A DNA stretch of 64,000 nt from Psammoneis japonica (taxonomy: Eukaryota). The translations under genes and the position numbers were made by a program. Below the pieces are notes generated by a model. It was given only the letters and a program-made list of their open reading frames with translations, had not been told where the DNA came from and made no database searches. The stretch covers positions 124,001-188,000 of the forward strand of contig QPGO01000039.1 of the NCBI GenBank assembly GCA_008632985.1. The letters are read 5' to 3'. This document shows positions 11,501 to 60,670 of this stretch, in pieces. Every line of letters begins with the position of its first letter. Within the stretch, counting starts at the first letter, position 1.

Positions 11501-11620
11501 GCTGACACGGGCAACAGTTGGAGTGTTTGTGCAATGCCAGGTCTGGTGGTGGTGGGAGCCTTTTTACTGCTAGCACTGGCAGTGGTTGGAGCCTGTGCAA
11601 CACACCAACCGTCGGCGGCG
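8520..11620. mobile_element. Degenerate repeat domain (TpA/CpG-depleted), element identity unresolved
   Basis: Dense nearly Tyr-less spurious ORFs, TG/CA-rich composition, one N near 9716; contains the tandem array listed next. Confidence 0.55.
10150..11600 (+). repeat. Degenerate minisatellite of ~30-40-bp units (core gcactggYggYggttggagcc) with a ~305-310-bp higher-order period
   Basis: The ggttggagcc/gggagcc/ggatcc core recurs more than 20 times. Matching blocks at about 10290/10601, 10397/10704 and 10510/10815. Confidence 0.8.
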
Positions 11621-11989
11621 GGATCTTGAGATGACCGGCGACAACTCGTGGAGAGATTGCTTGGGGGTTGCAGTGCAATTGTGTGTTTAAAAACCAGTGC
11701 TTTAGATTGTTAACGTAGATCTTAATGATGGTGATCTCTTGTCTCTATGTTCTTTTGATGATGTGGTGCAACAGTGTCTTCTTTTTAGCATCGCGGCCGA
11801 TTCACCACACTCTCTACTGGCTAGTTAGCAGCAGCAGGCCCTGGCTACTTGCTACTTGCACCACACGTCTGATTTTCACCTCGGATGCATGGCGACGGAC
11901 GGACAGTGCGACCAATTTTTCCGAATCATCTCCACAGTGTCCACCAGTCCATTGTCATTTGTTGCGATGAAAACTGCACGGCACTGACC

Positions 11990-13184: not shown

Positions 13185-13699
13185 CTCCGATTCGCTGATG
13201 GGAATCACATATATGTGGCTGTTGATTTTTACTGGAAAAAGAAATGGGCGCAAGTAACATAAAATCGCATACTGTACTGTAGAAGGGGGCGGCTCTAATC
13301 ATGGGTCGAGAGGACGAGAGGAACCCCCCGAAATAAAGCCCTCTCTAACTAGAAAGCAGACATGAGATGCAATTGATCCAATTGTGAGAGGCAACGACGA
13401 ACTGATCGGAAGAAGAAATCATCGTGCGACTGCGCTGCGCGAGAGGAAAAATTTGGACGCAAGTAGAAAACTTGGAGTGTTCTCTACACAAATAGCCAAA
13501 GTAACCTTGCCAACTTCAACCCTCTCCCGGACAATGGAAACGTGTACATTTCACACAACAAAGTATCCAGACTGCTCATTTACACCCCCCTCAACTTGTT
13601 TGTGGAGAGAGAAACTGCATGTTTTCTTACATTCATCGTTTGGCACAGCTCCACAAAACTGGAACGTCACGATTTTGGCACCTTTCTGAAACGGATGAA

Positions 13700-33500: not shown

Positions 33501-33700
33501 ACAAGGTCCATCATCAGCGCAGTCAGTTACAAACTTTCTCCAGTTCTTCCTTCGCCACAAGCTCAGCAGCCGCATGAAAGGACCACGTGCCCCACTTCTT
33601 GAGCAGCACCACATCATTTCCCCCCCAAAAGCTCAGGGAGGTTCATAGGCTGCATTGAATGTGTTGGAATTTTCGTGTACAGGTGCATGACGAACATGCC
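30600..33700. mobile_element. Degenerate repeat domain with internal tandem duplications
   Basis: TpA/CpG-poor core 30750-33650. Two ~175-bp copies (about 31690 and 31870) and three ~160-180-bp copies starting ctccagaatcagc at about 32182, 32342 and 32522. Confidence 0.55.
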
Positions 33701-36848: not shown

Positions 36849-37439
36849 ACCCGAAAGAAAAATATGTTCAATTCTGCTCTAAGTCACGGACACACATGCT
36901 CTCATGTGCATGGCTAAGTTCAATCATCAAAATCAGAGATTGAGATACAACATTGCATCAAACTTGGTGTCATCATCGGAAGACGGGTGTCCTTTGTTTG
37001 TTTACATTTATGAGAATACGAGAAAGAGCGTCCGAAACACTTCCACCAACAAACGACGGAAAATGCAAAACGAGTGATACCTTGCACTCTGGCAGACTGG
37101 TACAGTATTGGGCTTCTCCTTCTATCTGTTTGTCTCGATTGTGCTGTGGTTGGTCATCAACTGTGTCTAAAGGCAAAATATTCCGATAAGAATGTGAAGA
37201 TTGCAGGGAAGAAAACCCCAGGAGGATCCGTAACGGTGTATCCACACAGAGTAGCTTCACCTCACTCTCTAAGAGAGCGCTCACTCGCTCGCTCCCGAAA
37301 ATGTGACACTGCAGCACAATTGTCCAAAAGCGATTGAAGTAGTTTTGGCAAAATACATTCACTGTCAAGCAATGGGCAGTTTTCTGTTTTGGATGCCGGT
37401 CTAGAGTAGAACATTCCTTCCCGGAGATTTGTAAAGCCA

Positions 37440-37540
37440 AAGGTTGCTCTCTAGCTCTCTCTAGCTAGAGTAGTGGTAACTAGAGCTCTAGCTCTAGCTA
37501 GAGCTAGCTCTACAATGCCGGTAGGGCCCTACTCTAGTGA
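37440..37540. repeat. CTAG/AGCT-rich low-complexity tract
   Basis: ctctagctctctctagctagag...ctagagctctagctctagctagagctagctcta. Confidence 0.6.
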
Positions 37541-37551
37541 GTCGAACTTAA

Positions 37552-37931
37552 GGGGGGTCATCCCCGCGTTTATCCTAAAATTACCGTTGCATTTGAATAA
37601 GGTTTTTTATAGTGCTTATTTTTGAATACAAGAATTATTCATAGTCACACCCGATCGCGCACGAAAACGAGAACCGCCATCAACACCGCGATCGAAGCAC
37701 GACGATGATGACAATCATCGATATTTCTCAAAAACGTAGTTTGCCGTCTACCAACTTTTCATGTATATACAATTTTGATACATAACAAACATAAAATAAA
37801 TGAGAGTTGGTAGACGGACCACCTCCGTTACAGACTTATGGCTTGTTGTTTTCACCACGGTGAAGCACGGTGAAATTCAGGAAAAATCATGCAAAACTCG
37901 AGCTAAAAAAAGTATTAGCAACCGACCACCC
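37552..37931. mobile_element. Non-autonomous Kolobok-like DNA element (380 bp)
   Basis: TTAA flanks at 37548-37551 and 37932-37935, short TIR ggggggtc/gaccaccc (RR..YY ends), internal inverted repeat gtctaccaactttt / gagagttggtagac, no ORF. Confidence 0.55.
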
Positions 37932-38134
37932 TTAATATTATCATCTTTCTTCATGCTCGAATAATTTGTAATAGAAGTACTAACTCGTGACTCAATGAGA
38001 GCATCGAACGGGACTGATCAAGTCGTGCAACTTACTCGCGTGCGAACTCGCGCGTTCTCAATTTTCAGCGACTGCAAGAAACACACCACAACACCAGAGT
38101 TGCAATAGAGCAAAAAGAAACACTAGAAACAACC

Positions 38135-40222: not shown

Positions 40223-40439
40223 GATCTGCTGCAGAATGACTGACCATCCGCTGTCCGCTGTCCGCGATCGATCCATCCAACATCCAATCAAATCTTTTTG
40301 TGGACTGTCCTTCTGTCAGAGCCAATTCTCGATCGTTCCTTTCTGGAGGCCTGTGCGCCTGCTCTCGAGAGGGACAGCCAATGAAGGCTAATCTACTAGC
40401 TCTGCGCTGCTTGGAAGCCACAACTACAAAAAAGCCTAA

Positions 40440-41240
40440 GACAGCTAAGGTGTGAAATCATCCAGCTGACTGCTGAGTCCAGGAGCAGCGCACGTGGTCA
40501 AATGGCAAGCCACCAGAGAGACAGGAGTGCTTCAAAGCTGCCCAGACAGCAAAGAGAGAGCAATGTCAAACAAAAAATCCAAAGCTCAAGAAAAATGTGT
40601 GCAACAAATCTGCAGCCAGTGGTTGCAAGCTGGCCAAAAAAGAAAGAAGCCAGCTGTGTTTGCTTTCTCTGGCTGGCAACAAGTGCAAAAGTTTGTGCTC
40701 ATGGAAAGCTGTAGGTGGCAACAAAGTCATTGCTGAAAAATTCCAAGCATGTGCGGGTGTGACAGCAACCCATGCCAGCAGCCACTGTCATTTGCTTGTC
40801 ACAACAGCTGAGGCTCTTTTCTTTCTTTTCTTGTGACAATGCCAATGGTGTGCTCAACTCAGAGCTCTTTTGTGACAGACCAAGCAAGTGCATCATTTGT
40901 CTTGTTTGTAGATGGGGAGCAGCTCTGCCATGTGAGGATTTTTTGCCCCGTCTGTCATTTGTCTGTGCTGGGCTGCATTGGGGTTTTCTTGTTCAGGCAA
41001 AAAGCTGAGTCTCAGATGATCTGGAAGGGCAGCATGCAGCAAGATTTCCAGAGGTGCAAAAGTCAAAGTGCATGGCCAGTTGTCATGGGTGACTTTTGTG
41101 GTGCACCAAAAGCAGCCATGGTGCTGCTCCCCCCAAGCACACTTGGTTATTTCAAGAAGAGACCAGCTCCTGATGGTGCTTTGTGCACAAAACCAAGGCT
41201 TTGGCTACAGTTGCAGTCATGTGTCAAGAACCAACAACTT
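40440..41240. mobile_element. Short degenerate repeat domain between FKBP and the kinase
   Basis: TpA/CpG-poor, TG/CA-rich, only spurious ORFs. Confidence 0.45.
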
Positions 41241-43204: not shown

Positions 43205-44070
43205 AGGGCCAAGCCCGTGTGGTGAACAGACAGAAAGTTGTTCTGTAGTTGTGTGATGTAAGCCGTAATAAGAATTAGTTTCAATGAAGAAAAACACATG
43301 TACGGAGCTATAAACGAGAGAGAGAGAGCGCTTATTCATTCGATCACTTAGTGGAACAAGCAGGCAAAACAGAAGAAAATTGTACGAAACACTAGCTAGC
43401 TACGGCATTGTAGGTGTGACTAGTGGGTACGATGCACCACAGGTCTACTGATGAAATCATCTGACAAATGCCAAACAGGTGTAGCATCTCGGACCAGAAG
43501 CCGCCTCTATTCTTACCTTCCTCTTTCGTCAACAATCCAACCGTCGATTCCCGTGTATCTCATTAATCAACATTTACAAGTTGGTTTCTCTACTGTTCAT
43601 TCACGGGCGGCGGCGGCGGCGCGCTTTAGAGGCATCAGTACTCCACACTTATTGGCCAATTATACCCGAGATTGTCGTGACCCATCACCTTGAGATTGAA
43701 CCCATACCCAAATTCCATTTCAACTTCGGACACGTGCAAACAATGGAGGACTGCAGACCCTCCTTGATTGGCAAAGATGACGTTCAACACTTGTGCCACC
43801 TGCGGGACATTGTTCGACCTGCACACCGTGTTTCATCACACTTTTGTGATTTCTGCTCGCGGTCTATTTGGTCAGTGGATTTCGTTGGTGCTTTGGGTTT
43901 GTCATGTCCAAAGTCCTTGGCCATCATGAGTGAGAAGATGACACTCTGGTGCACGCAACAAAAGAGGAATGTCAGCAAGTGGTTCCAATGACAAATCAAA
44001 ACATCACATTGTTTTTCTTGCATTTGAACAACAGTCATGATTTGCCTGCAGAAAACAATCAGCAGCACCA

Positions 44071-44267
44071 TGATCATGTGAACATGGCAGGACAAAAAGC
44101 AGCAAAATTGGCCAGCTCATTGGTGCACTGAATTGGAAAGGAGATGGACTCTGGAAGGCATTTCTCACTTGATCATGTGAACATGGCAGGACAAAAAGCA
44201 GCAAAATTGGCCAGCCCATTGGTGCACTGAATTGGAAAGGAGATGGACTCTGGAAGGCATTTCTCAC
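44071..44267 (+). repeat. Near-perfect 99-bp tandem duplication
   Basis: tgatcatgtgaacatggcagg...ggcatttctcac at 44071 and 44170, with one internal substitution seen (ctcat/cccat). Confidence 0.85.
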
Positions 44268-47200
44268 AAGGAATGGAGCAGACAGAGAGCTCTGCTAAAG
44301 CCATGCCATGCAAGGCTGGACCCTGATGTGACACTTGCTCCACACAGAACATCTGTCATGCAGCACACTGGACAAGGAGGTGGGCACTTGTTGACCACAT
44401 CAGAGCACAAGTTAAAAGTGCACAAATCACCCAGGTGCCAAAGCATGCTGTGGCTGTCCCTTTTGGTTAGACTCACTCAACCCCTTTTTTGTTTCAAAAT
44501 GCCAACAAAAGAGCAAGGGCCAAAGCTCAAGCTGTGAGCAGCTGTGGTCCCAGCAAGCAAGGTGAGCTCTGATCTCAAAAAGCCAGGTGGTGTTTGACTT
44601 GAGCAATGCTGTGCATGACAGTCACCAGACAAGAAGGAGCTTGAGATGTTGTGGCATCTCAATGCCAAAATGGGGATTCTCTTCTTTGGCAAGAAGTTGG
44701 CTGGAAAAAAGCGGCTTTTGTTGCTTGCCAATTTTGATCCACTGTGCACTCATTGAGCAATGAGGTTTTTGAGAGAAGCTGCAATTTTGTCATTGCCCAA
44801 GTGTGTCACAAAGGAGGCAGAACAGGGGGGCAGCTTGCAAGCAAGGAGAGCATGCTGCAGGGCTCCTCTTCTCACCTCATTGGGTGGGTGAGTTCTTTTG
44901 TGAGCTGCCTGTGCTTTTTGCTCAATCCATCTGCGGTGCAGAAAAAATGAGTTGTTGCAAACTCACTGTTAGCGCCTTGGGAAATCTTGCTCTCTTGCAG
45001 CTTTGGCTGGCAGCTGGGAAAGTGTCAATGAGCAGTGCAGTGGCTGCTGCATTTGGGAGTGCCAGAGGTCTTGTTGTCAATGGCTTGGAAACAGCAAAAC
45101 CTGCTTTACAGCCCAATCAGCCATGACTTGAACTTTTTTGGCAGAGGACATGCAGACAAAAATGGCTGTTTGGAATGCATGATGATGTGCAGCACAATGG
45201 CCAGCTGTTTTCTAGATTGTCAACATGGTGATCATTGATGAGAAACAAACCATCAAATGACAGTTGTTGGCAAGAGCCAGTTGCACTCCTCACAAAAAGC
45301 AAGCAACTGAAATCACTGCAGTTGCTGGCAGCTTGAGAAGAAGCCAGTTGAACTTTCCAACAACACACAATGATGTTCTCAGCACTTCTCCTGAGTTGCC
45401 AAGCAGTCAATCTGAGAAATGAAACAAACTGCAGGCACATTTGTTTGGTGTCCAATCCCTTGAAAATGGGCGGGAAGTGCAAATGACTGGCAGTCCAAAG
45501 GTTGGCCATGCTGGTCAACCACCACTGACACCCCTTGACAAAATCATCTCCAGTGCCACAGAAGCAGCACCACTTCAATGACTTCCTCCATCTCCCCCAA
45601 GAAATGGGACTCAACATGCATGGTGATGTGCAGAGCAGCTTTCCCATGTCATCTGGGCATGAGCCAACCCATGCCGCTGGCAATGCCCTGTTGTTAGATT
45701 TGACCAAAGCAGCTCTCACTCACATCAGATGAAAATGGCACAAAAAATTGGTGATTTGACCAAGAGGAGAGCTCAGGGTCAGACACAGCAAGGTCAGCTT
45801 GCTTGTTGCTGATGACCACCATCTGTGGATGTTGGTTGACAATGCACACAACTTGCACTCAAAGCACAATCTTTTGGAAGCTGGGTCCAAAAACACACAC
45901 ATCAACAGTTGTTGCCACCCACAATGTGGCGTGCAACTTCTCACCACTTTGCTGCTGAGTGCCCATGCATTCTTCATCTCAACCTGTCAACAGAAAAAGC
46001 AGAACCTCTGGCACTGCACAATGGTTGTGCAAGCAAATTTTTTTCACTGGGGGTGGGTGGGCTTCAAGGGTGCACACACTTCTCCAGTTGGTGGGCAGCC
46101 ACATTGGGGTTTTGAGTGGAGGCATCTCCCCACATTGCGCCAAATCTGTGGCAACACAACAAATGACCATCAGAATCTCAGGCCCTCAATGCTTTGAGCG
46201 ACCACCAATTTTGAGTTAATTTGAGCCAATGCTTTCCTTGTGGAGCTCTCACAAATGACAACCAGCCACTGAGTGGTGGTTGGAAATTGTTGATGGCCCA
46301 TCAAGAAGGCCACAGTGTTGGTGGTGCTCAGGGAAAAAGTTTTGATGACCCAGCATTGGCAAACCTTGTTTGCACAGGCATTTTGTCCCTCAGTGGAATG
46401 TTCACTTGTTTGGTCACTCAGTGGCAACATTTCAACCATTTCTTTGGTCACCTGGCACACAGACCAGCAACTGTCAAGGAGCCAGTTGTCCTGCAATGTC
46501 TGCACTGTGGCTCCAACAGTCATTTGAATCTGGAAATTTTCTAAAGGAGGCTGCATTTCAGCAACTCTTCAATGAAGCTTTTGCAGTGCAATTGCCACCT
46601 GAGTTTGCTGTTTGTCCAGAGTTGAGAGCCTTTGCTGAAGACACAAATGGGAAGACAGTTGCGGGGGAACTGGATTTTCAAACAGCTGGCAACTTACGTT
46701 GGGCTGTTGAGCTTTTGAGAAATGGGAACAAGACCAATGAACATGCACATTGCTTTGACCTGATCAATGGGAAGCATCATTTAGCAGGGCACAAAGCTCA
46801 CACCTCATTGTGGACTTCAGGAGAACTCGTGGGTGCAAACAAGTGAAATCCACACACAAACATTGCACTCTGCACTTTTCCACATCCTTTGAGTCAGTGG
46901 AAATCAAAATGAGAGAGTGCCCACTGTTGAAGAAGCTCATGGATTGATCAAAGCATCATTTGGCCAGCTTGCATTGGCAGAGGGGTAAAAATGTGTGATG
47001 GCTCACAGAAAAACTCAACCTCCCATTGGCCAGCAGCAACAGGAGCTGCTTTTGTAAAGGAGACTGTGAAACAGAAGATCAGCTTGTGACTGACTTTGTT
47101 GTAATTTGTGCTGGCTTTGGGTGAAGAGCAAGTGTTCAGCTGTTGATTTTAATGTGTGGTTGTTTTTGTGTTGATTGACATTTTGCATGGGATGTTGCTT

Positions 47201-48825
47201 TTTGACAAAGTGGCTTTGTGGCATGTGCCAGAGAGGGACCTTGGAAGCCACAGCTGCATTAAACCAGCATGATTATCCAGCAACTGACTTCACAAATGGT
47301 GCAATGTCAAACTCTTTTTCAAATTGCTCCAATGGTGAAACCAATGGCAAAACAGCTTCTATCTTGCAGCATGGTGGTGGGCCAGAGTGGACAATGTTTT
47401 GTGCAAGTGCAAGAAGCTGCAGAGCAACGAGAATGCAAACACAAAAAAAAATGATGTGGAGCTCCAGCAAATGCTTGATCTGCACCTGATTTGGTGATTT
47501 TGCTGCCAAAGGATTTGGCAAAATCCACTTTGCAACCAGTGGTTGCAAGCCAGCCAAAGAGGCAAGATGCTGTGACTGCATTCTTGAGCCGACAGTCAAT
47601 GCAAGAGTCATTGCACTCACCAAAAGCCAAACAGAACTGCCGCTCAAACTCTGAGCATGGCAACCCTGTCTCTGTTGAGTGCTTGCTGAGGCAATTGTGG
47701 CACTCTTTGCCTTTGTTCCAAGAGAAGGTGGTCCTCTTTTTGCACTCGTCTGTCTGTCGGATGGATCATTTGTGCTTGTTGGGAGTGAAGTTGGTGTGAA
47801 AAGTGACTCCGTCACAAACTTTGTTGGAACCGCTTGATGGACAATGATGACAGACGTTTTGTCGTCATCGTTGCGACAGATCCGGGCAGTGCGTACATCG
47901 GAATCAATGGTTGATGTTGTTGCTGTTGTTTTGGCACCATGTCATGAGCATTGTGAGCATCTTGTTGAGATCTCATTGCGATGGGAACAGGAAAATGGCA
48001 GCACATGTGGTGCTTCAATCACGAAATGCATCCAACCCAAAGGACCCGGGGGTGGCAAAGTGAAGTCGTTCCAGTTTGTTCATTTTCACAGTTTTGTTTT
48101 TCTTTGTTGTTGGTTGTGTTGTTTGTGTCCATGGGATGCAATGAATGTGTTCAATGTCCCAGGAGGTCTCGCACTGTTGGCACACGGGGCTGCGGATTTC
48201 ATTGCCTTGAGCTCAAAATCCCCGCAGAAGCGCAAGCAGGTTCAGTGCTAGAGTGAGCCGGTGTTTTTCCTTTGTCCCCTTTCGAAATCCCAGCATGGAA
48301 AAGTCAAAAGGTCAAGAAAAGACAGAGGAATGACTGACAAAAGAGGATCCCATGGAGAGCAAGAAACAGAGGAGCAAAAGGGTTTCCAGGAGTCTCCAAT
48401 CAATGGTGCCAGAGACAAAGGGGGTGTCCCCTCAACGTTGCTGAATGTTGCATCGAACACAAAGGAGACCCTGAACAAAAAAGACAAAAGAGCAATGAGG
48501 TTCCTCAGGAGACATGCATGAGAAGTGCCCATTCTTCTTCCCTGCTCATTGTTCTGGGACACTTCACAAAGTTTCTGCATCCAGGAACTTGCGGCACTCA
48601 AGGGTGGTGCTGTGGAGTTCATCAGTGGCAGCTTTGAAACAAGTCTCAGATCAATGATGTTGGAGGTCAATGACAACAATGTTGTGCATTTGTTTTGCCA
48701 TGATGATGTTGGAGGTCAATGACAACAATGTCATGCAATTGCTTTAGAAAATTTGCCAATGGCAAAATGACATCATGGTTGATCGGCAGCTTGTTGCTCA
48801 CGCAAGTTTTGCATTGCCAGACAAT

Positions 48826-49149
48826 TTAGCATGTGCTGCTGCATGCACTCTCTAGCTGTTTGCTCAAGTCATCAGACCAAACATCATCGGACCATTCATC
48901 ATCAGTCCATGCATCATCTGTCCTGGCATCATCTCTCCCAGCATTGTCTGTCCAAGCATTGTCTGTCCCAGCATTGTCTGTCCCAGCATCGTCTGTCCCA
49001 GCATCATCTGTCCAAGCATCATCTGTCCTGGCATCATCATAACATGACATGAGATCCAAGTCAGAGGTTGCAGCATCATCAGAGAACTCAGCATTTGCAG
49101 AAGCAAACAATGACATGACGAACAGCATCAACAAACAAAATGTTTTCAT
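48826..49149 (-). pseudogene. Signal-peptide ORF with acidic (T/S)DD(A)x pentapeptide repeats (15-bp tandem repeat)
   Basis: MKTFCLLMLFVMSLFASANA followed by DDARTDDAWTDDAGTDDAGTDNAG...; embedded in the hypermutated domain. Confidence 0.55.
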
Positions 49150-50832
49150 TGTGATTTTTGAATGCCCAGTTTGAAATCAGAAACCAAGGCAAGTCAAGTC
49201 ACAAAGGCTCCAATGACTCAATGTTGAGTTGTAGATCAGGAACCAAAGGCCCATGAACTCACCAGTCTAAACGTGAAGAACACACAGCAGATGGTTGTTC
49301 TGTTTGAATCAGCACGTGGCCTTGCCTTGTGTGCCAAAGGCATAAAATGAGCTCATGGCTGCAAACGTGTGGTCAGGGGAAGGCCACTCATCGCTCAATT
49401 TAAAGGAGCAATGAATGAATTACGTCACTTTGTCAGAGGAGGACTTGTCCAGAAAATCACTGACTTCAAGCTGACACGCACATGACCCTCTGGCACTGGA
49501 ACAGTTGGTGCAATTGTGTGTGCTGCAGGTTCAACTGATGCTGACATGATGCTCAATGCCTGCAGCTGTGTCAAAGCTGCAAGCACCTTAAGGATTTTAG
49601 CCAAAAGCTTAGAACAGAGACAAGTTTGATCTAGACGAGAGCATCCAGCTTGTAAATCATCAAGCAAACGGCTTTGAAAACATGTCCATGTCTGTGATTG
49701 GAGATGGTGAAGTGCAAAAGAAGAAAACAAGCAGAAATCAATGCATGTGGTCAATTGCCGCTGACACCATGGGCTGCTTGCTGTCGACTGAAATGTCAAC
49801 ATTGCCACCAGGTGTTGCAACGCTCATGACTTTGGTCACCCGATGCTGCATTTGATCGACCGCATCCAGATCAGGCAGTTTGGTTCAAACACAGGCGTGG
49901 CTTTCCTCTGAGAGTCTTCATTTGTTGATGCCACACTCACACTTGATTCTCCAATGGCTTCTTTTGCTTTGTTGACAGTTTTCTGAGATGAATTCTGGAA
50001 ACAACACGTCCGCAGGGGCTCGAACTTGGTGTTGAGTTTGGGTGGCTGCAGAGAGGGCTTCGCATTTTGGGTTCCCACCAAGTGCTCTCGCAAGATCGCC
50101 GCAACACTTTTGGTGTCATCAATGATGCCACTCTGCTTGGAAGCATCAACAACCTAAAGCAGGCGGAGCAAATTGCTTTGCAGCTGAGACAAGATTGTCG
50201 GGTCCAATCCTGGTGCCATGGGCGCCAGTGTGCCGACAACTTGTGTGCCATGTGCTTGTTGGAGATCCCAGCCAAACTCTGGGATGGTCGAGATGTCATT
50301 GCAGATTCTGCTGTTGTCCACCAGATTGTTTGCCAAAAGTGAGAGGATGCATTGGGGTTCCCATTTCGGCCTTGAATTGAGATGGAGTCTCAAAGGTTCA
50401 CTTGTCACATTTCTCCCAACACACTCCTGTGGTGCCACTGAGGTTGATTGACCTGCGGGACCAAACTGAATGCGTTGATTGCCCTTCCTGGGCCTGTTCT
50501 TGTTCTTGTTCTTGTCCATCTTTCTTTCCTTGGGTTCCTTGGTTGGTTGCTTGGACGGTTGTGGTGACTTGACGACGGCAGCAAGGCCCATGATTGGGTC
50601 TCGAAATTTTCAAAATAGAGCGCCCTGAAGTGGCTTGCTCACATGCAATCTCCTGTCATTTCTGATTTGGGACACCATTTCACCTTCAGTTCTCCACTCG
50701 CCATTTGGTCTGTGATGAAGAAATGCCAAATGTTGATGTGCTTGGTGCGTTTGCTGCTAGAGGCGTTGCCGTTCTTTTCAGAAGCATGGCACTCTTTTTG
50801 TCTTGGTGCATGACGTCATCCACAACCTCGCA

Positions 50833-51220
50833 ACGCGCTCCAGCCCCAGGTGGGACTCCGTGTGACATTGGGCCCGTAGAATTCTACGTGCGAGCTCCCC
50901 AGTGCGAGAATTTAATCAATGCATGTGTTTGTCTTCAACATCAAATAAACCGCCAAGTTTGTGGTGCAATTGTGCCTCTTGCCACTCGACGTTTTTGCAA
51001 ATGCGCCTGCCCTGCGCGATTCTTAAGACGTCATAGAATTGCGCTGCAACAAAAAATGTCAAAAGTTGTTGGACGGATCGCTCAACAAGTGCACCGTAAA
51101 ATGACACAAAATGTCGAAAAAATCACGTAGAAATCTATGTGCGCGACATGCGACGTGATTCAAAAAACCATCAATGTCACAGTTCAGCAGTGCGAGGTCC
51201 CACCTAGACCTGGAACGCGT
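50833..51220. mobile_element. MITE, 388 bp, 24-bp imperfect TIRs, 6-bp TSD CTCGCA
   Basis: Left end acgcgctccagccccaggtgggac; right end reverse complement acgcgttccaggtctaggtgggac. TSD at 50827-50832 and 51221-51226. Removal restores Copia EAQGCEVVDD. Confidence 0.88.
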
Positions 51221-51808
51221 CTCGCATCCTTGAGCTTCCACAAAGTGGCGCATCCAACAATGGCATGAAGTCATCAGCTCCAACAACCTCGGCTTTGGCA
51301 GAGCTGCAAGTGTTGAGCTTCTGCTTGGTGGACCCCGTTGCAGGGAATCCTCGTCCTGGGGACAATCCTCCTCCGGAGTGTCCTTGCATGTTTGGATGGA
51401 CCGCACATGCTGAGTCGATCCACCATTTAAGGACACCACTTCCGTTGGCACTCAAAATCAGGGGCGACGTGCGTGCATCTCTGAGACACTTCACAAGGCC
51501 AGCAAGTTTGTCCCAGTCATCCTTGTCTGGTTCTCACACACTCTCGTCGTGAGAAATGTGATTGCTGTGCATGTGTCAGGTCGGGCTCATTTGGTGGCAC
51601 ATGATGTCTTGGCTGCCAAGTTGTGAAACTGTGCAGCCTTGTCTGCTGATGGCTTTTTGCAGTCTTCGTCAACTGCAAGCAAGTCTTTCGGTGCTGCGTT
51701 CGACTTGGCACCCTTTTCCTTTGGAGCAGCCTTGTCGAATGCTGATGGGATCTCATCGATGCACCCTGTCATTGCAATCTTGACTTGACCATGGACGGTG
51801 TGGTCTAA

Positions 51809-53050
51809 GACTCTGTCCAAACACTGTCATGGGCATGATCACACCCACGTCACGCAGGCTTTTATGATGACGTCACAGGTCACACCCGCAATGTTCTGTC
51901 CAAACACATTCGTGCGTGCTGTGTGACAGCAGCCCCACCTCATGGACATTAGTCGAATGATTCAAACTTACAGCACGCGAAGCAATGCCAGATGCAACAT
52001 GAATGAACCAGCGATGACAACACGACAAGAACGACATGACCATGTCGACGAGATCGCAACCACAAGGCGACAATGAGCCACACAAAGGACACCCATTGAT
52101 AAAAAAATCATGCTTGTGCACAACTTATGGCTTGATCAGTTGTCTGAAAGAGTGCATGACATGAATTTATTTTAAGAAACTGTTTGGCGAAATGGTTGTG
52201 TCAGAAGAGTCCAGAATGGCACACAAAGCCCCCCAAAGACAACAAGCGGCCCATGCATGGTCTCATGTGGTTGCCTCATATAACATGCAGCCACATGCGC
52301 TTTGGCCGCATCAAAAAACGATGCACATCGGTTGTTTTCGTGTTTCGTCGGTGGGGTGTGATGTTTGGGTATGATGTTTAAAATAGAAGATTAAGGGAGC
52401 CTGTGTAGAGCGGAAGGGAACAGCAGAGGGAGGCACGGAGGTAGCTGTAGAGATGGCAGAGTAGAAGGGTTGAAGGACGCAAGACGAAGGGCGTTTTGAG
52501 GAAGGCATGGGTGAGGAGGGAGTGGGGAGAGAGGAGGTGAATCGAAGGATGTGCGTAGAAAGGTGAAGAACGACGTTGCAGCTGAGAGTTTGGGTGGCCC
52601 ACTGGGATGGGGTGGCCATACGGCAGGCACTCCCAAAGCAATCGGCGGACAGACGACGCCATGCGAAGTCAGCGGAGGGAAGGATTGCAGACGGAGACGA
52701 CAAAGCGTAGAGGAAGGCGGAGCAGGAGGCATCAGAGTGACGAAAGTCAGAGGAAGAGGACCAGGGTGGCTTGGGCTGAGAGCAGACAGAGGAGGATGTA
52801 GAACCAAAGAGCAAGCGGTGAGCAAAGCAGCCGAGACCACCAAGGTGATCTACAGTGAAGGGGAGCAGGAAGATGCCATCATCGAGGAAGTCTGTTCTTG
52901 CGAGAACAAACATCCTCGTGAAAGTTGGCATGGCCTAAAATTACGTCATGCATGGGGCCAATGACCACTGATTTTTTCGAAGAGGCTCATTTTAGGTGCT
53001 GTGACGTCAGGCATGATCACACGCATGCATGACAGTGTTTGGACAGGGTC
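51809..53050. mobile_element. Non-autonomous PIF/Harbinger-like element (1242 bp), 23-bp TIRs, TAA TSD
   Basis: Left end gactctgtccaaacactgtcatg; right end reverse complement gaccctgtccaaacactgtcatg. TAA at 51806-51808 and 53051-53053. Removal restores LGMTL-DHTV. Confidence 0.9.
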
Positions 53051-53524
53051 TAAAGTCATTCCAAGACATTCATGATTTTGCCTCTGCTGACGGTCATCTT
53101 TCCAGATCCGTCTTCAAAAATGCTCTCGCATTCCTTAAGAAGCCATTCCATCATCCTGTCTGCCACTTTCCTCTTGCGGTGGCTCAGTTTGCAGTGTCGT
53201 CCACATGGAACAAGACAGTCATCTGCATTCCTTTGATGTCCTTGTTGAAGATGCAGGGATTGCATGGGTTCACAACAAAACCAATCAAATCAAGACTTTT
53301 AGTGAACTTACGGCAGCAGAGCAGGCTTGCCACCACAGTGCCGCAGAGGGCGTTGTGGCACCCAACCAACAACTGTTTCACTCCCTTCTTGTCTGTTGTG
53401 ATGTGCAAAGGGCAAGCAAACATCTGGAGCCATCTCCAGCAGGATGTCAACCAGGACTCCACCTAGCCTGATGATGACCATGTCCTTCTTGTGTTCGATT
53501 TGGGTTTAGATGAATGCGTTTGGG

Positions 53525-54081
53525 ACGTGTTCCAGCCGCGCGTGAACACACGCATTTAAAAAAACAACATTTGCGCGATTTTCGCATGGCCACTAACTTG
53601 TGATCAAACTGTTGAGTAAAAAAAATGCTTCACACATTTGCAAATGTTTTTGACACACATTGACAAGACCCACCTGAGTGTGTTAAAACAATCGGTTGCT
53701 TTCCATTTCTCATTTTTGTTGCGCTAATTGCATCACAACACAACGGATGATTTTTGGCGCAACTGTTGCCGTCATTGGGATGTCACCCAAACACATCTTT
53801 CTACGATGCCGCTTGGCATGTTTTCCACCTGCAAAGAAATTGCACAGTGTGAAATGTGCTGACGTAGAATCAGCATTGAGTCCACTGAGGAGGTTTGTGA
53901 CACATGTCCCATGAGAACTTGAATGCCCCACAAAAAACTGTTTAATTGTCCACACTCTGTGCGCCCACAAAAGTTAGTCTGCCCAAGTGTTTTACATGAA
54001 AATGCTCCATGTGCTAAAAGACACACAATTTATGTTCAAAATCAATTGTCGTTTTGTGCGTCACCTGGGACTGGAACACGT
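53525..54081. mobile_element. MITE, 557 bp, ACGTGTTCCAG TIRs, 6-bp TSD YTTGGG
   Basis: Perfect 11-bp TIR acgtgttccag/ctggaacacgt. Flanks tttggg (53519-53524) and cttggg (54082-54087). Removal restores Copia DIPNAF. Confidence 0.85.
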
Positions 54082-56281
54082 CTTGGGATGTCAGCCACTG
54101 CGACATCATCTTCTTCTTTGGCATCAATGACACACAAAAGCAAAACTGCTTCTGTTGACACTGTTGGCAAGCTGGCATCCTTCTTTGAGATGCAGTCTCA
54201 TTGCTTGTTTCCACCTGCAACGGCACAGCCTTTGACACTCTTGTCGCGCTTTTCCTTGAGGAACATGTGGGAATCCAGTGCGGTTCAACGTTGACGCAGT
54301 GTCAGTTCCCTCCAATGCAGGGGTTCGAGCGCATCCCTGAAGTGCAGTTGCTTCATTTCGGAGCAGGCCGCTTTGTAGGCTCTGTCTCCCCATTGCTTGA
54401 GACCAGCCTTGAGGGAAAGCTGTGTCATGATCACAGCCACAACATCGGGTTCCTGCTGGCAGAAGTCATGCTGCACAAACATGTGTGAGTCAGGATTGAG
54501 TGCGCTGTGGGTCTCCAGTTTCATTGCGGCATGTGAGCACTTGTTGCCAGTCATGCTTGGGATGCAGCTCTTGGTCTGAGTCTTGGTCCGCGCACAGAAC
54601 AACGCAGTCCTTCAGTGGGTTGTTCCATTGGCTGTTGAGCCGGTTCTGGTGGTGGTGCTGGTGTTTCAGGTTTGGCAGGGGCCTGAATTTTGTCTTGTGG
54701 AGGTGGAATGTTGAGATCATCCTCTGTTTCGTTGACTGGAGGAGGTTTGTAATTGTCCCATGCATCATCCGCAGCATCCACTCCTGGGAGCTCAACATTG
54801 CCATCGTCGGCTTCCTCAGGTGGCAACAGGTCCACTCCTGGGGTAGGAGCAAGGGGGTCTTCTGGCATGAGAGCATTGTTGATGAGCTTGTCCTCAGGTT
54901 CCACTCCTGGGACTTCCACATCTCCGATGAGATGGCCTTTGCAATCAGCAAAGATCAGGTCTTCCAGTTGGTCCTTGCCGAGTTCATCAACTTGCGCAAC
55001 AATGACATTGGGCACAGGGAGTTCATCCCAGTTGCAGTGTGCAATCTTCTTGCCAGAATCAAGAGCCATGGGTCAACATCCTCCTTGGACACTCCGGTTT
55101 TGGCAGTTTTCATGCATGGGGCAAGTGGATGCACATGCAATGTCGACATTGTTTTGACTGTTAGATTCGTTCCATGTGGTGCCATCATCTAGCTGCAGTG
55201 TTCACAGGCAAATGTTTTGTCTGTTGGTTGTCGTGCAATCACCCATGTCGGCCTTCAACGTGACGAAACATTGAGCAGCTTAATTGGGCCTGACCGGGGT
55301 CAAGATTCCATGTCCCTCGACTGCCTCCCCCACATTGGACCTTTGAGGCATGCCAGCAATCCATCGTTTCTCTGTGTGTCTGAATTGCTTTGGAGAGGTC
55401 TTTTAACAGTGTAACGTCATGAAGATTGAGTCACACTGGGTCAGATTGTGGTGCTCACACTGAGATTTGCATGGGGTGAGTGCAGTTCAAGGTGTTTTCT
55501 TGACCCCCCCAGCAAACATGAAAGTCTCCCAGACAACCAACACAATTGCCACCGACTCCCACACTTTGATTCAATCTCTTTCCACAATCAAAATGTGCAT
55601 CATCTGCCTGGCCGCCAGCTTCAAATGGCTTTGCCATGAAACCATGCCAATGGCAGAAAGCTTTGAATGTCCAAAGGTCTGACATTCTTGCATCTGTGCA
55701 TGAGTCAACTTTTGGCCAGATCCAACTTGAACCCAAGCAGCAATGTTGCCATCAGTTTGGACTGGGGCACGTGTCCATTGCAATGATGAGGCGACATGAC
55801 AGTGTGGAAATCGAGTGATGTTGATGACTGTTCCCTGGTTTTGAAACAAAAAAGCACGAGTGAGACCACATCGCGGACGGCCACCGGCGCTCATCAATGC
55901 TGACACGCGCGCTCCCGCCCTGGCCTCGCGCCTCGCCTCTCACCTCAAAACTCAAGATCCTTTGTGCTTTTGTTGCTCTTGGCTCTTGTCCTCCGCCAAC
56001 ACTGCTTTTGCAATTTACAAGCACAGTCAAATCTGCTCAATGATTGGTGTCTTGGCCTGATGCCGTCAAAAAAGCAGAAAACGCAGGTCAAAACCGCTTG
56101 CAATTTTGAAAGTTCTGACAACGGCGGCCACTGCAAACCCCATGGCTCGCCTTCTATCTCCCCTCCTCAAGACAACAACAATGATGCGCTTTCATCCTCA
56201 TTGCAGAATCTTTTGAGTCAAAATGACTCCATGATGAAAGCTGTCAGGTGTTCCAGAGACAGTGTCATCTTTGTCGTGGAC

Positions 56282-56827
56282 TCAACATTCAGAATCTTCT
56301 GCAGGACATTCGGGTCCGGTTTCATCGTGTTGGCAGGTGTAAATCAATGTTGTTTCGATTTCTGCATCGTGCTTCATGCACAGTGACTCGGATGTGCATG
56401 TGTTGTTGATCGAAACTTGTGTGAACGTCTTGTCTGTTTGCTTGTTGTTGTTGTTGTCAAACTGCACGACAAAGTCACTGCAGCTGAAAACGCTGCCATT
56501 GTGATCACTTGGTCTGATCAAAATCACGTCTAATGCTTCTCCTTGTGCGATGTCATTGTTGTCACCTGGACACATGATCATGTCCATCACAGCAGTGTTG
56601 CAAGACAGACAATCAAGAGAAAAGGTGTCGTCGCCACAGCAATTCGATTTCGCCATCATGGTCATCGCAAAGTGTTCGAGCAAACGGCGCGTGCACTCTT
56701 GCGGTTTTGGCACGAATGCGCAAGTCTGTTCCTTACCCTGACAGCTTCTCCTAGACAACAGCTGTTCATCACAATGTGGAAGGAAGTCCAGATGCATTGC
56801 GAAGGATCTGTTCACCACAGCGTTCAT
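56282..56827 (-). pseudogene. Host-like Cys-containing protein fragment within the hypermutated domain
   Basis: 181-aa frame with protein-like composition but only one Tyr; no TE motif recognised. Confidence 0.35.
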
Positions 56828-57082
56828 TCTCGCGATTGGATGACCGGCAAATTGTCGACAAGAAGAAATCGTGGCAAGCCAAGAAAATGAAAAATTGGCT
56901 CGTCAAGCCAGAACTAAAAGACAGCACAAACAAGAACAAGAAAGTCAAGAAGCAGAGCAAGAAAGCAGAAGCAGAGACAAGGGAATGAAGAATGGCAGAC
57001 GCAGATGATGCAGCCAAGTGGAAGGAGGAGCTCTGTCATGGTGCACTGGATGGGAGAGAAGTGAATGGTGCAGCTGGATCTA

Positions 57083-57085
<3 letters not shown>

Positions 57086-57116
<31 letters not shown>
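57086..57116 (+). repeat. (GA)n microsatellite
   Basis: Run of GA dinucleotides. Confidence 0.9.
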
Positions 57117-57118
<2 letters not shown>

Positions 57119-57934
57119 GCAAGAGCAGGGGATGCACATTGACCAGACGAGACACGAGACCTGTGTTGCCCCCTGCTTTGTCTTGATGTCAGCGCAGTGT
57201 TGACTGTTGAGTGCCTTTGTTTGTTGTGTGGGCAGCAAGATGGCTGGAACAATGGACTGCAGAACAGTTTGAGCCAATGTCACTTGTCTGACTTTGTGTC
57301 TTGTTGGTCTTGCTTTGGCTGAGTCTGTCTTTTCTTTTCACACAAGGTTTGCAAAGCAGTCATCTGGAACATGAAAGCCAATGGCCTTGAGCTCACGCAA
57401 GGAGCTGGATCGAAAAGGCTTGTCTCGAGGTGGCAAGCGCTCAACCAGTTGCTTGTGGGTGACCAGAGTTGGCTCACATCCATGCGCATTCACAAGTTTC
57501 TTCACTGTGTCCAACGTTTCTTCTCGGAAGTGGTGCTCTTTCGAAGAGTCACTGAAAGAATGCCATCTCAGCACCCAGCAAAGATGCTCTAGATTTCTTG
57601 GGCATTGTTTTCCGCCTGGGCGTTTTGCGATGATGGCAAGACGGTCCTTCACTGAAAGACAGGTTTGAGTTGAGAACAGATCATTGTTCATCTGGTGTGG
57701 CAACAATGCAAGTGCTGACCTGCGCGAGCGGGAATCCCGCACCATTGTTTGTGTCAGTTCCTGACTTCTTGGGAGGAGACACCCAGGACCATCAGACAGC
57801 CTGACGGTTTACCCCAGCCATGTGGCACCATGTCACACCCTGGGTGTGATGGCCATTGTGCCCATGCCATGCAATTGACCACTTGCCACAAGTTCTCACA
57901 TTGATGCAGGGAAGGCGTTGAACCAAGGGACATC

Positions 57935-59350
57935 ATGTCCACCTCCATGGGTGGTGGAGATTGCCTTCTCTGTTCAGTGTGCCAACTCCCCTTTTCTGCA
58001 CGGGGTGGTTTGGAGTCACATCTTCGGCAGTCCACCAACTGCCAGCAAGCTCTTGCCACTGCTGGAGCTGCCACTGCTGCTGCCAACTCCACAGATGGCA
58101 ATGATGGGGATCTCAGTGAAGCTCCACCTCTTCGATGCATTGAATGCCGTTGTCAAGGTGCAAATTCTGTGACAAACACCACTCAAATTGTTCCCTCCAC
58201 CCTCAACCCCGGAACAAGGAGATCTTCCAGACCAGCAGCATCACAAGCATGGCACCCCCAGTCCTCTGCCTCCAGAACGTCACCTCCTCCAGATGCATTG
58301 ATGGTGTCATCTGTCCATCACAATGAATCAGCCGAAGCCACATCTTTCATCATGGCCACTGAGGAAGAGCAAAGCAACAACGTTGGTGCTGGTGCTGGTC
58401 TCCCACCAGCACATCTTCTGGAAGGTCAAGCAATGAATCTGGCCGACAATGAGGACTTCAACGCACCCATGGTGCATTCTAACGAGATTCATGCAATGGC
58501 TGGGATCCTGTGACTGTGTCAGATGTCAGGTGTTCCCGTTGAGGTTGCTGATGACATCACAGCCACTGTTCACAACAAGCACGCCTCTGGCAGCCTTTCA
58601 GCTGCACGCCCCCCTCCCAAGACCCGAACCGTCATTTCCAAACTAGAAAAAATGCTCCCTGGTGTTGTGAAACCAGTCTTGTTCAGGGTGCCACTCAAAA
58701 CAGTCTCCATCAATGCTCAATTTTGACACAATCCTGACTTTGTGTCCTCTGCCCCCATCCCTTCACACAATTTCCTGGAGCAACTAGATGATCATTTTGC
58801 AGATCCCATTTTCCACAACATCAACAATCTCAACGTTGATCCTCATGACCACTGGCGCGCGCATCCAACAACTCCCTCTGGTTGCAACACCAGCAATGGT
58901 GACTGGAACCTGAAGTCAGAATCAGAAGTCAAGGATGGTGAGTGGCAGAACAAGTTTGCTGCAGTGTTCTTTGGTCCCAAGCTCCCTCCCGTCTTTCACA
59001 CATTCTTGATTTTCTACACTGACAAGATGGGGAATGGAGCAGTTTCCCCTCTCTCCATGGAACCGTTTGTGTTCTCACACTTGCTCTCATTAAAGAATCT
59101 GCCCGGAGGAACCACCGTTGCTGGAGGCCCCTTGGATTTGTGCCATGTTGCAGCAGCCCCTTGATCTCCTCCAAACAGAATGTTTTTTGGCAGGAATGTC
59201 CGGAACTGCCATCGCATCCTGAGCAAAATTCTGGAGCCCTTGTTTGAAGCCCAGAAGAATCCGCGATGCAACTTGGGCTTGTGGCAGAGAAATGGGAGGG
59301 CAAAGAACTTGGCTGAAGGAGTCCATTTGGTTGATTCGAGGATGACTCCT
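57935..59350 (+). mobile_element. Degenerate Plavaka-like transposase with N-terminal C2H2-type zinc finger
   Basis: CSVC..PFSARGGLESHL; FLEQLDD...NLNVDP.D.W; NGDW; LIFYTDK.G...MEPFVFS; WRPLGFVP; RNCHRIL. Stops and frameshifts. Confidence 0.65.
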
Positions 59351-59649
59351 TCCTTGACTTGGTGGCAATGATGGACTTGAGCCTTGGAGCACACAGCTCC
59401 AGGCCAAATCCATTGGTGAACAGCTCGGTTTCATTGAAATCGGGTGCATCAAACGTGAAGGACGGGTCGGGGTCACCGCCATCGTCGTCGCCGTCCTTCA
59501 ACAATTCGGCTGCCATGGTTGATTGCTTGTGGTGCGTTGGGTGGAAGTTTGTGCAGAAACGTGTAGAACGCAACAGTGCACCCTCTCTCAGCTGAGTCCG
59601 TGCACTGCTGCAATCTATGGTTCATAGAGTTGATGTCCGGAGGCTGTCA

Positions 59650-60670
59650 AATGAAGTGATGAGTGTCCATTGCAGGGCAAGGGATGTTGAAGTTGTTGCC
59701 TCTGCATGACGCCCATTGCTTCGTTGTCTGAGGAAAACTCAGATGGCAGAGGAGTGACAAAGTCATCCAGAAACAGCAGGGGGACTCACCCATTTGCGGA
59801 AGCTTCACCTTAAATTGTTTTGGAGTGAATGTGCAATGGGCATCTGCATTGTTGGTCACGCGTTGTCACACGAATGGCCAAAAATCCTGTGCTGCCCACA
59901 TCAGATTCTCACACCCAATGGGTGGCAAATTCCCACATGGTGGTGTGGGATTTGCCACACATGTGGGTGTGCCCTTCACAACATCATTGCCACACCAGAT
60001 GTTGCGCTCCAGCATGAAAATGGCGATGGAGTTCGTTGTCTCCTTGCGTGTCTCCATCCGAGTTGAGCCATTCATTGTCATTTGCCTTGTAGTCCCACTG
60101 TCCACAGCGGACAAAGTCATGGCAAGTTGTTCCATCTTCAGGGCGAAACTCACAGTCCAGGATGTGCGCTCCGTTCAGCACAAGTCTTCGCCCGCGTTTC
60201 AGGCATCCCACAAAGAACGCTTCTTGGGAAAGCGGGCAAGAAAAGGAACGACACATCTGGTCATCTTCTCACAAAGCTTTTGGCGCCATCTCCGAGATCC
60301 ATCGTCATCTTCATCATCATCACCCTCTACATGCTGATGCCTGCATTGGATCATGTGCGACAAGATCTTGATCTCTTTCACGCAACCCTTGTCAAAACGA
60401 CGAGCTTGAGCAGCATTCAGCCCCCCGGATGGGAGAAGAAGAGCCTGGGCACCAGCGGTAGAACATCATGCAGATAGAAACGGCACATGGCGGAGGAATT
60501 TAGCACACCTGAGTGTGGAACGTGATCGGCATTATCTTGGCCCAGATTTCGGGAGGGAGAAACGGCAGCGGCCCAGCAGGGTTACCGTAGCATTGACTCC
60601 TGGTCTGTCTGCCAACCGTTTTCCACACCGCCCCATCACTACGCCTCTTCCTTTTCGTCGTCGTTGTTGT
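59650..60670 (-). pseudogene. F-box-like family pseudogene (paralog of 62627-62971)
   Basis: LPFLPPEIWAKI..DHVPHS.V.N.SA.CRF.LH; then, after frameshifts, AQARRFDKG.VKEIKI...VVPFLARFPK. Confidence 0.7.

Follow-up and report, generated by a model that had tools for sequence, protein, structure and literature searches.

We examined a 64,000-nucleotide stretch of the Psammoneis japonica genome (GenBank assembly GCA_008632985.1, contig QPGO01000039.1, positions 124,001 to 188,000 of the forward strand; hereafter the window) and found that a decayed Copia-type pol gene on its minus strand has lost all of its conserved tyrosines. Out of 572 conserved residue columns 424 were retained, namely 0 of 21 tyrosines and 424 of 551 for all other residues (Fisher p=1.5e-13), and the 21 tyrosines were replaced by cysteine in 15 cases, by histidine in 5 and by phenylalanine in 1. 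We think it likely that this dead gene is part of a sharply delimited block of silenced or junk DNA, on which two strand-symmetric and dinucleotide-specific transition processes have acted in place. Process 1 would change A:T to G:C at TpA (TA>TG or TA>CA), with a per-strand preference for 5'-TAY-3', and process 2 would change C:G to T:A at CpG. Tyrosine codons (TAY) would become TGY (Cys) by way of the coding-strand A and CAY (His) by way of the A on the opposite strand, and arginine CGN codons would become Cys, Trp, stop, His or Gln through process 2.

Mutation spectrum of the relic

To score the residues, we mapped 120 homologues to the relic by tblastn, took the majority residue as that of the family and called a column conserved when it was covered by at least 10 homologues and at least 70% of them agreed. 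With a 90% agreement threshold, tyrosine was retained in 0 of 18 columns and all columns together in 325 of 415. Arginine was retained in 16 of 35 columns; elsewhere it gave way to Cys in 6 columns, to Gln in 4, to His and to stop in 2 each, and to Trp, Lys, Asp, Gly and Leu in one column apiece.

Conserved residues were replaced at 148 columns, by 33 TA>TG, 15 TA>CA, 17 CG>CA and 13 CG>TG changes, by 18 single transitions of other kinds, by 28 single transversions and, in 24 cases, by two or more changes. A single transition suffices for 96 of the replacements, and 78 of these 96 fall in the TA and CG classes, in agreement with an earlier reading made from the DNA letters alone (hereafter the sequence-only reading), which had placed most of the divergence at TA and CG dinucleotides. 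As in TpA hypermutation, the A:T>G:C change of the relic is limited to TpA and runs in both orientations, to TpG and to CpA; A>G or T>C at other dinucleotides made up only 7 of the 96 (AA>AG 2, TT>CT 2, CA>CG 2, GA>GG 1), and a single one was CA>TA. The CG changes likewise run in both orientations, with the counts for CG>TG and CG>CA given above, a spectrum that would fit CpG decay.

The TA rule extends beyond tyrosine and over codon borders. At codon position 2, A>G was found at 14 of 21 TA sites (Tyr) vs 2 of 161 AA, GA and CA sites (Asn, Lys, Asp, Glu, His and Gln), and at codon position 1 it was found at 17 of 25 sites that follow a T and at 4 of 117 others. T>C at codon position 2 affected 10 of 15 sites whose third base is A and 0 of 150 with other third bases. 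All 7 Val>Ala replacements ended as GCA and all 3 Leu>Pro replacements as CCA.

We also tested the spectrum at the nucleotide level, at 1050 sites that were covered by at least 15 out of 72 metagenome relatives and showed at least 80% agreement among them, four mutated-looking loci being excluded. A>G was found at 11 of 14 TA sites vs 11 of 161 other NA sites, and C>T was found at 4 of 9 CpG sites. The sequence-only reading had made its claim depend on TpA being hit more often than other A/T sites, and such an enrichment was present, at 12- to 50-fold.

Sequence context of the changes

We compared the frequency of TA-containing words between the TA/CG-poor islands of the window (described below) and normal DNA. 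The island/normal ratio was 0.01–0.03 for RTAY (ATAT, ATAC/GTAT, GTAC), 0.09–0.23 for mixed TA tetranucleotides and 0.47–0.50 for YTAR (CTAG, CTAA/TTAG, TTAA). For trinucleotides it was 0.06–0.11 for TAY and 0.28–0.29 for TAR. These ratios fit two independent half-sites, with a per-strand survival of ~0.15 with a 3' pyrimidine and ~0.70 with a 3' purine. It follows from the tetranucleotide survivor ratios that the per-strand target is 5'-TAY-3', i.e. RTA on the opposite strand. A palindrome-reading enzyme with RTAY as one site was considered and set aside, the half-site prediction for the mixed tetranucleotides being 0.70 x 0.15 = 0.105 vs the 0.09–0.23 found.

Within the relic, 10 of the 11 surviving TA are YTA, and 4 of the 5 Tyr>His events have a purine just before the codon. 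The imbalance between Cys and His arises because the coding-strand A of a tyrosine codon always has a 3' pyrimidine, while the opposite-strand A has one only after a purine.

The CpG sites showed a context of their own. The island/normal ratio of GCGC was 1.08, compared with 0.29–0.61 for the other NCGN classes; a 5' G seems to protect CpG, GCGC being spared in the islands.

Identity and state of the Copia relic

The relic runs on the minus strand from 55093 to 50411 and is collinear with amino acids (aa) ~915–1727 of polyproteins of 1715–1790 aa in tblastn, where 13 full-length homologues gave E values down to 1.9e-87. There were 423 homologues at E<=0.001, and the full-length ones bear PF07727 (RVT_2, the Copia-type reverse transcriptase, RT). 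The relic has the Ty1/copia arrangement of an RVT_2-type RT followed by RNase H, in the same order as in known polyproteins, and its RNase H stretch shares 78% identity with the best homologue. It is the 3' two-thirds of a dead Ty1/copia-type pol (end of integrase, RT and RNase H) that was split by three later insertions with terminal inverted repeats (TIRs).

Four pieces of pol, all on the minus strand, were delimited by tblastn. Piece 1 (54083..55093) matches the end of integrase or linker and the N-terminal RT (aa ~915–1235 of ~1750-aa polyproteins) and has one frame change and in-frame stops; according to the homologue columns, its tyrosines changed to Cys at 54566, 54539, 54461 and 54194 and to His at 54533. 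Piece 2 (53052..53523) matches the RT core and has three frame changes, with Tyr>Cys at 53418, 53345, 53318, 53315, 53264, 53130 and 53068, Tyr>His at 53405 and Tyr>Phe at 53409. The C-terminus of RT and RNase H correspond to piece 3 (51221..51807), with Tyr>His at 51802 and 51247 and Tyr>Cys at 51763, 51601, 51488 and 51226. Finally, piece 4 (50411..50832) corresponds to the end of RNase H and the C-terminal tail, with Tyr>His at 50808, 50725 and 50645 and Arg>Trp at 50728. The four pieces together contain 8 frame changes and 5–6 in-frame stops.

The eight serial replacements that the sequence-only reading had listed in this gene were all found on the minus strand. They comprise KQRDYIS>KQ*DCIS (arginine to stop at 54200, TGA, and Y>C at 54194, TGC), LYG>LCG (53345), LLYYRKF>LLCCRKF (53318 and 53315), NPYDPC>NPCNPC (Y>C at 53264 and D>N at 53261), YLGMTLDY>CLGMTLDH (Y>C at 53068 and Y>H at 51802, the motif being divided by insertion 2), RYFMEAQGY>RHFVEAQGC (51247, 51241 and 51226), YQD>HQD (50808) and IRYFFI>IWHFFI (50728 and 50725). 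Read in the correct frame, codon 53068 is TGT (Cys), and a 'Val' call at this position is a frame artefact. The sequence-only reading had described most other motif residues as still recognisable; 424 of the 572 conserved residues were retained.

No tblastn match to aa 1–914 of the polyprotein (gag, protease and integrase) or to further Copia pieces was found window-wide, even at E<=0.1, and no long direct repeats of the kind formed by long terminal repeats flank the relic. The relic is 5'-truncated and incomplete. A Pfam scan of 8 pol fragments from the window detected 0 relevant families, because the fragments are too decayed. In X1, the only sequencing run in which the locus was present (as contigs), the relic is now unique DNA, single-copy at a word depth of ~60. 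The diatom Copia groups CoDiI, CoDiII and CoDi6 (Maumus et al. 2009) were set by RT phylogeny, according to the available part of that paper (PMC2806351). What is shown for the lineage of the relic goes as far as a Ty1/copia (RVT_2) affiliation, with relatives found in aquatic metagenomes. The CoDi label assumed by the sequence-only reading would be putative, its sole and indirect support being 76 related loci from metagenome assemblies, some of them labelled marine.

TA/CG-poor islands of the window

The composition of the window is bimodal per kb. Ordinary DNA has observed/expected ratios (o/e) of 0.43–0.82 for TA and about 1.0 for CG, and six islands have o/e of 0.04–0.2 for TA, 0.05–0.75 for CG and 1.6–1.95 for TG/CA. 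In the relic and islands, TG/CA o/e was 1.67–1.79 (TA o/e 0.08). According to the composition per kb, the islands occupy positions ~1–1750, 8500–11550, 13600–15550, 30800–33550, 40400–41200 and 43800–60350. The last of these, a TA/CG-poor and TG/CA-rich island of 16.5 kb, contains the relic and has per-kb TA o/e of 0.04–0.39 and CG o/e of 0.05–0.75. The depletion is confined to the islands: their edges are sharp at 200-bp resolution (e.g. at 15.6 kb the number of TA per 200 bp jumps from 1 to 15), and the genes adjoining them are unaffected. GC content was 0.47–0.51 in the islands and 0.45–0.49 outside.

With both strands pooled, the islands differed from the rest by -31.9 TAN, -30.2 CGN and +32.0 TGN per kb, the expected gain being (31.9+30.2)/2 = 31.05. 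The TG/CA gain is close to the TA and CG loss, as if each lost TA or CG had become TG or CA. The CG loss was uncoupled from the TA loss: at 44–47 kb TA o/e was 0.04–0.07 and CG o/e 0.05–0.09, and at 56–57 kb the values were 0.10 and 0.75, respectively.

The only identifiably mobile DNA in the islands was the Copia relic with its three insertions, and 43800–60350 is single-copy apart from the insertions, according to word depth in run X1. We scanned 73 island open reading frames (ORFs) of at least 100 aa against Pfam and obtained FKBP as the sole significant match, in a gene at an island border; none of the proper island ORFs among the 73 was assigned to any Pfam family. No Copia was detectable by tblastn in the other five islands, which show the same composition pattern. 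The loss of TAA and TAG leaves TGA as nearly the sole stop and results in ORFs of 100–230 aa in all six frames.

The contigs of run X1 (~60x word depth) nearly reproduce the islands (3249 nt with 1 difference and 3405 nt with 9 differences), which argues against a base-calling artefact. Among the transition differences listed between the window and X1, 10 of 10 in islands were TA/CG<->TG/CA, compared with 3 of 6 outside. The 10 island differences are a weak hint of recent activity and give no rate.

Nested insertions in the relic

The sequence-only reading had proposed three insertions in the pol, and all three proved real, each with TIRs. Insertion 1 (50833–51220) is a 388-bp TIR element of a very high-copy family, with TIR arms at 50833–50856 and 51197–51220 that are 83% complementary. 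Insertion 2 (51808–53051) is a multicopy TIR element of 1244 bp, with arms at 51808–51831 and 53028–53051 (96% complementary). Insertion 3 (53524–54082), a multicopy 559-bp TIR element similar to miniature inverted-repeat transposable elements (MITE-like), has arms at 53524–53545 and 54061–54082 (82% complementary). Word depth in run X1 was 61,000–72,000 for insertion 1, 560–4,600 for insertion 2 and ~5,000 for insertion 3, vs ~60 for unique DNA, which corresponds to roughly a thousand copies of the insertion 1 family. The TIR of insertion 1 (ACGCG.TCCAG...GGTGGGAC) resembles that of insertion 3, and the two insertions probably belong to related MITE-like families because their TIRs are alike.

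The o/e values in insertions 1, 2 and 3 were 0.39, 0.35 and 0.26 for TA and 1.2, 0.71 and 0.79 for CG, compared with 0.08 and 0.43 in the relic. The insertions are less TA-depleted than the gene that they interrupt, which fits a later arrival together with a time-dependent process.

These DNA transposons were themselves mutated after their insertion. Among the 40 of 86 difference rows that were listed, 18 insertion positions deviate from the depth-weighted majority of their own families: 8 have TG/CA in the window where the family has TA, 6 have TG/CA where the family has CG, 1 goes in the opposite direction and 3 are transversions. In other words, 14 of the 15 transition differences of the nested copies are toward TG/CA, and insertion 2 alone has 7 positions with TG/CA where the family majority has TA. 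An RNA-editing route fails for these changes because the insertions are DNA transposons. The window contained no further copies of the insertions that were usable for comparing island and non-island DNA.

Two separable processes in metagenome relatives

We found 76 related Copia loci in metagenome contigs, some of them labelled marine. Most of these loci had TA o/e of 0.43–0.9 and kept their Tyr and Arg residues. Pooling the relatives, replacements at conserved columns belonged to the TA class in 154 of 4069 cases and to the CG class in 269 of 4069; at the same columns of the window, the corresponding numbers were 32 and 21 of 101. The frequency of mutated copies is underestimated, because the scan patterns (one of them with Tyr) favour intact copies.

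Two of the loci show one kind of decay without the other. Locus L068, with TA decay alone, had Tyr>Cys/His at 8 of 19 columns and kept 27 of 28 Arg and 94% of the other conserved residues, and 16 of its 35 replacements were of the TA class. Locus L053, with CG decay alone, kept 8 of 8 Tyr and 11 of 23 Arg, and 22 of its 41 replacements were of the CG class. On the evidence of L068 and L053, the TA decay and the CG decay are two separable processes and not one. The sequence-only reading had taken the Tyr>Cys/His replacements as an independent trace of dinucleotide-targeted mutation, and this is upheld by our data, with the qualification that the TA and CG parts can be separated. The tyrosine signature was also found in database proteins, with Cys or His at 9 of 17 Tyr columns in P0055 and at 5 of 15 in P0111.

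The trio L038/L006/L007/L029 was tried as a clean young example and rejected due to its poor alignment (10341 columns, 554 unpolarised sites). TA-class changes made up 12 of 61 L038-derived changes, a weak signal from that poor alignment, and we did not use it as evidence.

Comparison with known systems

The closest known case is that of Bigelowiella natans, in which integrated DNA of nucleocytoplasmic large DNA viruses (NCLDV) and virophages undergoes TpA hypermutation (Mettrop et al. 2026, bioRxiv 10.64898/2026.01.13.699255). According to the available text of this preprint, A>G or T>C made up 210 of 211 and 20 of 20 de novo mutations in the two regions of integrated viral DNA, all these on TpA; the mutation rate is raised locally by about 1000-fold in living lines; RT and DDE domains are over-represented in TpA-poor and CpA+TpG-rich clusters; and an ADAT2-like adenine deaminase is put forward as the enzyme (bioRxiv 10.64898/2026.01.13.699255). 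The preprint defines its clusters by a Rho of at most 0.43 for TpA and of at least 1.52 for CpA+TpG over at least 3 consecutive 1-kb windows, and positions 44001–52000 and 53001–60000 of our window pass these thresholds when the mean of TG and CA is used.

By analogy, process 1 may be of the same kind as the hypermutation in the B. natans mutation-accumulation lines. Both consist of TpA transitions to TpG or CpA, according to strand, and, as far as the preprint text goes, both are restricted to foreign or mobile DNA. The two systems differ in several respects. The host of the window is stramenopile-like with intron-poor genes (long intron-free ORFs) and not a chlorarachniophyte, and the target is a Copia relic with nested MITE-like elements and unidentifiable junk, whereas giant-virus inserts are described in the preprint. 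The host may be a stramenopile, possibly a diatom: beside the intron-free ORFs, the Atlas cluster nearest to an AAA protein is eukaryotic with Oomycota as its commonest phylum (phylum recorded for just 8 members), and some of the metagenome assemblies with Copia relatives are labelled marine; a Dus protein was uninformative. The gene structure speaks against Bigelowiella itself, whose genes are intron-rich. The depletion in the window is far deeper (TA o/e 0.04–0.1 vs a Rho of 0.45 for the NCLDV stretch in B. natans). CpG decays too in the window, and the preprint text makes no reference to CpG; the TAY preference has no counterpart in the main text of the preprint, where 'context', 'flanking' and 'trinucleotide' do not occur. 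Moreover, the mutation rate was measured in B. natans, whereas the process described here is known from sequence alone.

Repeat-induced point mutation (RIP) of ascomycetes shares with our case the DNA-level, strand-symmetric and dinucleotide-specific transitions, the repeated or mobile targets, the sharply bounded islands and the destroyed reading frames. Its sign is opposite: RIP changes CpA to TpA, which raises TpA and lowers CpA/TpG, while here TpA is destroyed and CpA/TpG rise. The TpA excess and CpA/TpG deficit of RIP were not found in the relic and islands, as the o/e values above show. RIP also acts on duplicated DNA, and the relic is now single-copy.

The CG half of the pattern is similar to CpG decay in methylated transposons. 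Both CG>TG and CG>CA were seen, Arg changed to Cys, Trp, stop, His or Gln, and CG o/e was 0.05–0.75 in the islands vs about 1.0 in ordinary DNA; that decay covers only the CG half, however, and GCGC was not depleted. Diatom transposable elements are CpG-methylated via DNMT5a, according to the available text of PMC9998398.

Like process 1, ADAR hyperediting and the TadA/ADAT enzymes lead to A>G and need a 5' U/T. Their substrates are RNA, whereas the substrate here is chromosomal DNA, since both strands, the flanks and the nested DNA transposons were hit. ADARs are metazoan. ADAR hyperediting would give A>G on the transcribed strand only and in the retroelement only; we found instead 15 TA>CA on the coding strand, with flanks and nested transposons affected.

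In the literature, we found no report of such a pattern in diatoms or other stramenopiles, and the B. natans preprint is the sole precedent that we found. The available part of Maumus et al. 2009 (PMC2806351) makes no mention of RIP, TpA, dinucleotide, hypermutation or deamination. What is new beside B. natans is the other host lineage and the retrotransposon target, the TAY preference and the coexisting, separable CpG decay.

Proposed mechanism and alternative explanations

The data show that TA, above all TAY, and CG were converted to TG/CA at the level of DNA and symmetrically between the strands, in blocks of mobile or junk DNA only. The enzyme behind process 1 would probably be a TadA/ADAT-like deaminase that converts adenine to inosine in DNA and is recruited to silenced mobile DNA. 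The target of TadA and ADAT enzymes is A34, which follows the invariant U33; in bacteria the native site reads UACG, and YAC was preferred by early base editors derived from TadA. A TAY preference would suit an enzyme derived from this family. For process 2, deamination of 5-methylcytosine in CpG-methylated transposons would be the simplest account of the CG part. A wider proposal is that TAY-specific A:T>G:C editing of chromosomes is an ancient and widespread 'reverse-RIP' defence of the SAR supergroup (stramenopiles, alveolates and Rhizaria), performed by a DNA adenine deaminase of TadA/ADAT origin that is drawn to silenced mobile DNA with CpG methylation. This defence would cover a rhizarian, the stramenopile-like host of the window and uncultured aquatic protists (L068 and P0055), and tyrosine codons and TAA/TAG stops would be erased while transposons turn into TG/CA-rich islands. 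We offer this wider proposal tentatively, as a possibility that we rather doubt.

Several points weigh against the reading of two processes acting in place on a silenced block. The enzyme, the base modification and the methylation state are not visible in sequence, and an A-directed TAY process leaves the same footprint as a T-directed RTA process. For island DNA other than the 2.5-kb relic and the insertions, the direction was inferred from composition and mass balance and not from polarised changes. The nucleotide-level comparison, a small sample, gave T>C at 2 of 14 TpA sites vs 4 of 19 TpT sites, and G>A at 0 of 9 CpG sites. The survivor ratios assume that the islands started with the composition of the flanking DNA, and in the relic alone the effect of the 3' pyrimidine was marginal (T|AY mutated in 15 of 19 cases vs T|AR in 2 of 6, p=0.059). 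Finally, X1 is probably the source sample of the window, with a library type that is not on record, and hence is not independent.

The shared footprint of A- and T-directed processes leads to a thymine-lesion explanation, in which a TET/JBP-type enzyme oxidises the T of 5'-RTA-3' to 5-hydroxymethyluracil (hmU) or a J-like base, and mispairing or error-prone repair then gives T>C. The double-stranded RTA/TAY motif suits such an enzyme as well as an A-directed one, and both the hmU of dinoflagellates and the base J of trypanosomatids occur preferentially on the T of TpA steps. TET/JBP enzymes act on 5-methylpyrimidines, a range that could link the TA and methyl-CpG targets. However, the sequence offers nothing that favours this route over adenine deamination, we found no known route from hmU to efficient T>C, and the TpA-only L068 and CpG-only L053 speak against one enzyme for both; we consider it unlikely. 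The same two loci bear on a single deaminase with dual specificity for the A of TpA and the C of CpG. Both dinucleotides are depleted in all six islands, and the available preprint text (bioRxiv 10.64898/2026.01.13.699255) mentions ADAT2 enzymes with deaminase activity on A as well as C in nucleic acids, but the CG loss is uncoupled from the TA loss between islands, insertion 1 combines a TA o/e of 0.39 with a CG o/e of 1.2, TA-only and CG-only relatives exist, and 'CpG' occurs 0 times in the B. natans text at hand. A single enzyme is thus quite improbable.

The changes might also predate integration, if the RNA or cDNA of the retrotransposon was edited in its replication cycle (ADAR-like A-to-I editing or cDNA deamination) and the copy integrated in a hypermutated state. 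Coding-strand A>G indeed predominates among the tyrosines (15 Cys vs 5 His, binomial p=0.04), and ADAR-type enzymes prefer a 5' U, according to the available text of bioRxiv 10.64898/2026.01.13.699255. Against this, both orientations were seen (33 TA>TG and 15 TA>CA) and the Cys:His bias is accounted for by the TAY rule; 14 kb of non-Copia DNA around the relic are equally depleted, five more islands are alike without detectable Copia, and the transition differences of the nested DNA-transposon copies listed go in the same direction in 14 of 15 cases. We find editing before integration very improbable. Even less credence can be given to explanations without any target, i.e. an artefact of assembly or base calling, a general AT>GC bias (e.g. 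biased gene conversion) or the native composition of foreign DNA, which are largely refuted. They could draw on the slightly raised GC of the islands and on the unrecorded library type of run X1, but the X1 contigs at ~60x reproduce the islands nearly exactly, the polarised changes in the relic and insertions represent real mutation from TA and CG, and independent metagenome assemblies carry the same Tyr>Cys/His signature (L068, P0055 and P0111). A general AT>GC bias is further contradicted because A>G was rare at non-TpA adenines (2/161 and 11/161).

If the TpA-directed hypermutation of Bigelowiella acts in a stramenopile too, it would be more than one alga's curiosity. Eukaryotes would then have a second, independent mutational genome defence beside fungal RIP and vertebrate APOBEC editing, with the opposite compositional direction (AT to GC). 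There are practical consequences as well: the loss of TAA/TAG in the islands creates spurious long ORFs that gene finders would overcall, and decayed transposons slip past domain-based annotation. Tyr>Cys/His together with Arg>Cys/Gln/stop provides a simple protein-level detector for metagenomes, and the TAY preference narrows the search for the enzyme.

Further observations on the islands and multicopy DNA

The island at 8500–11550 showed a strand asymmetry of the products, with 448 TG vs 255 CA, while the skew of the other islands was at most 0.04. It includes a GC-rich (0.57), internally repetitive block at 10000–11700, with units 65–86% self-similar, and a single N at position 9716. The large island begins, a little way in from its left edge, with a 98-bp tandem duplication at 44071–44267 whose copies are 99% identical. 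Finally, a multicopy element at 37600–37900 (word depth ~800–4900) lies in TA-normal DNA (TA o/e 0.82 at 37001–38000); at position 37829 the window copy of this element has TA where the family majority has CA, the converse of the island copies.

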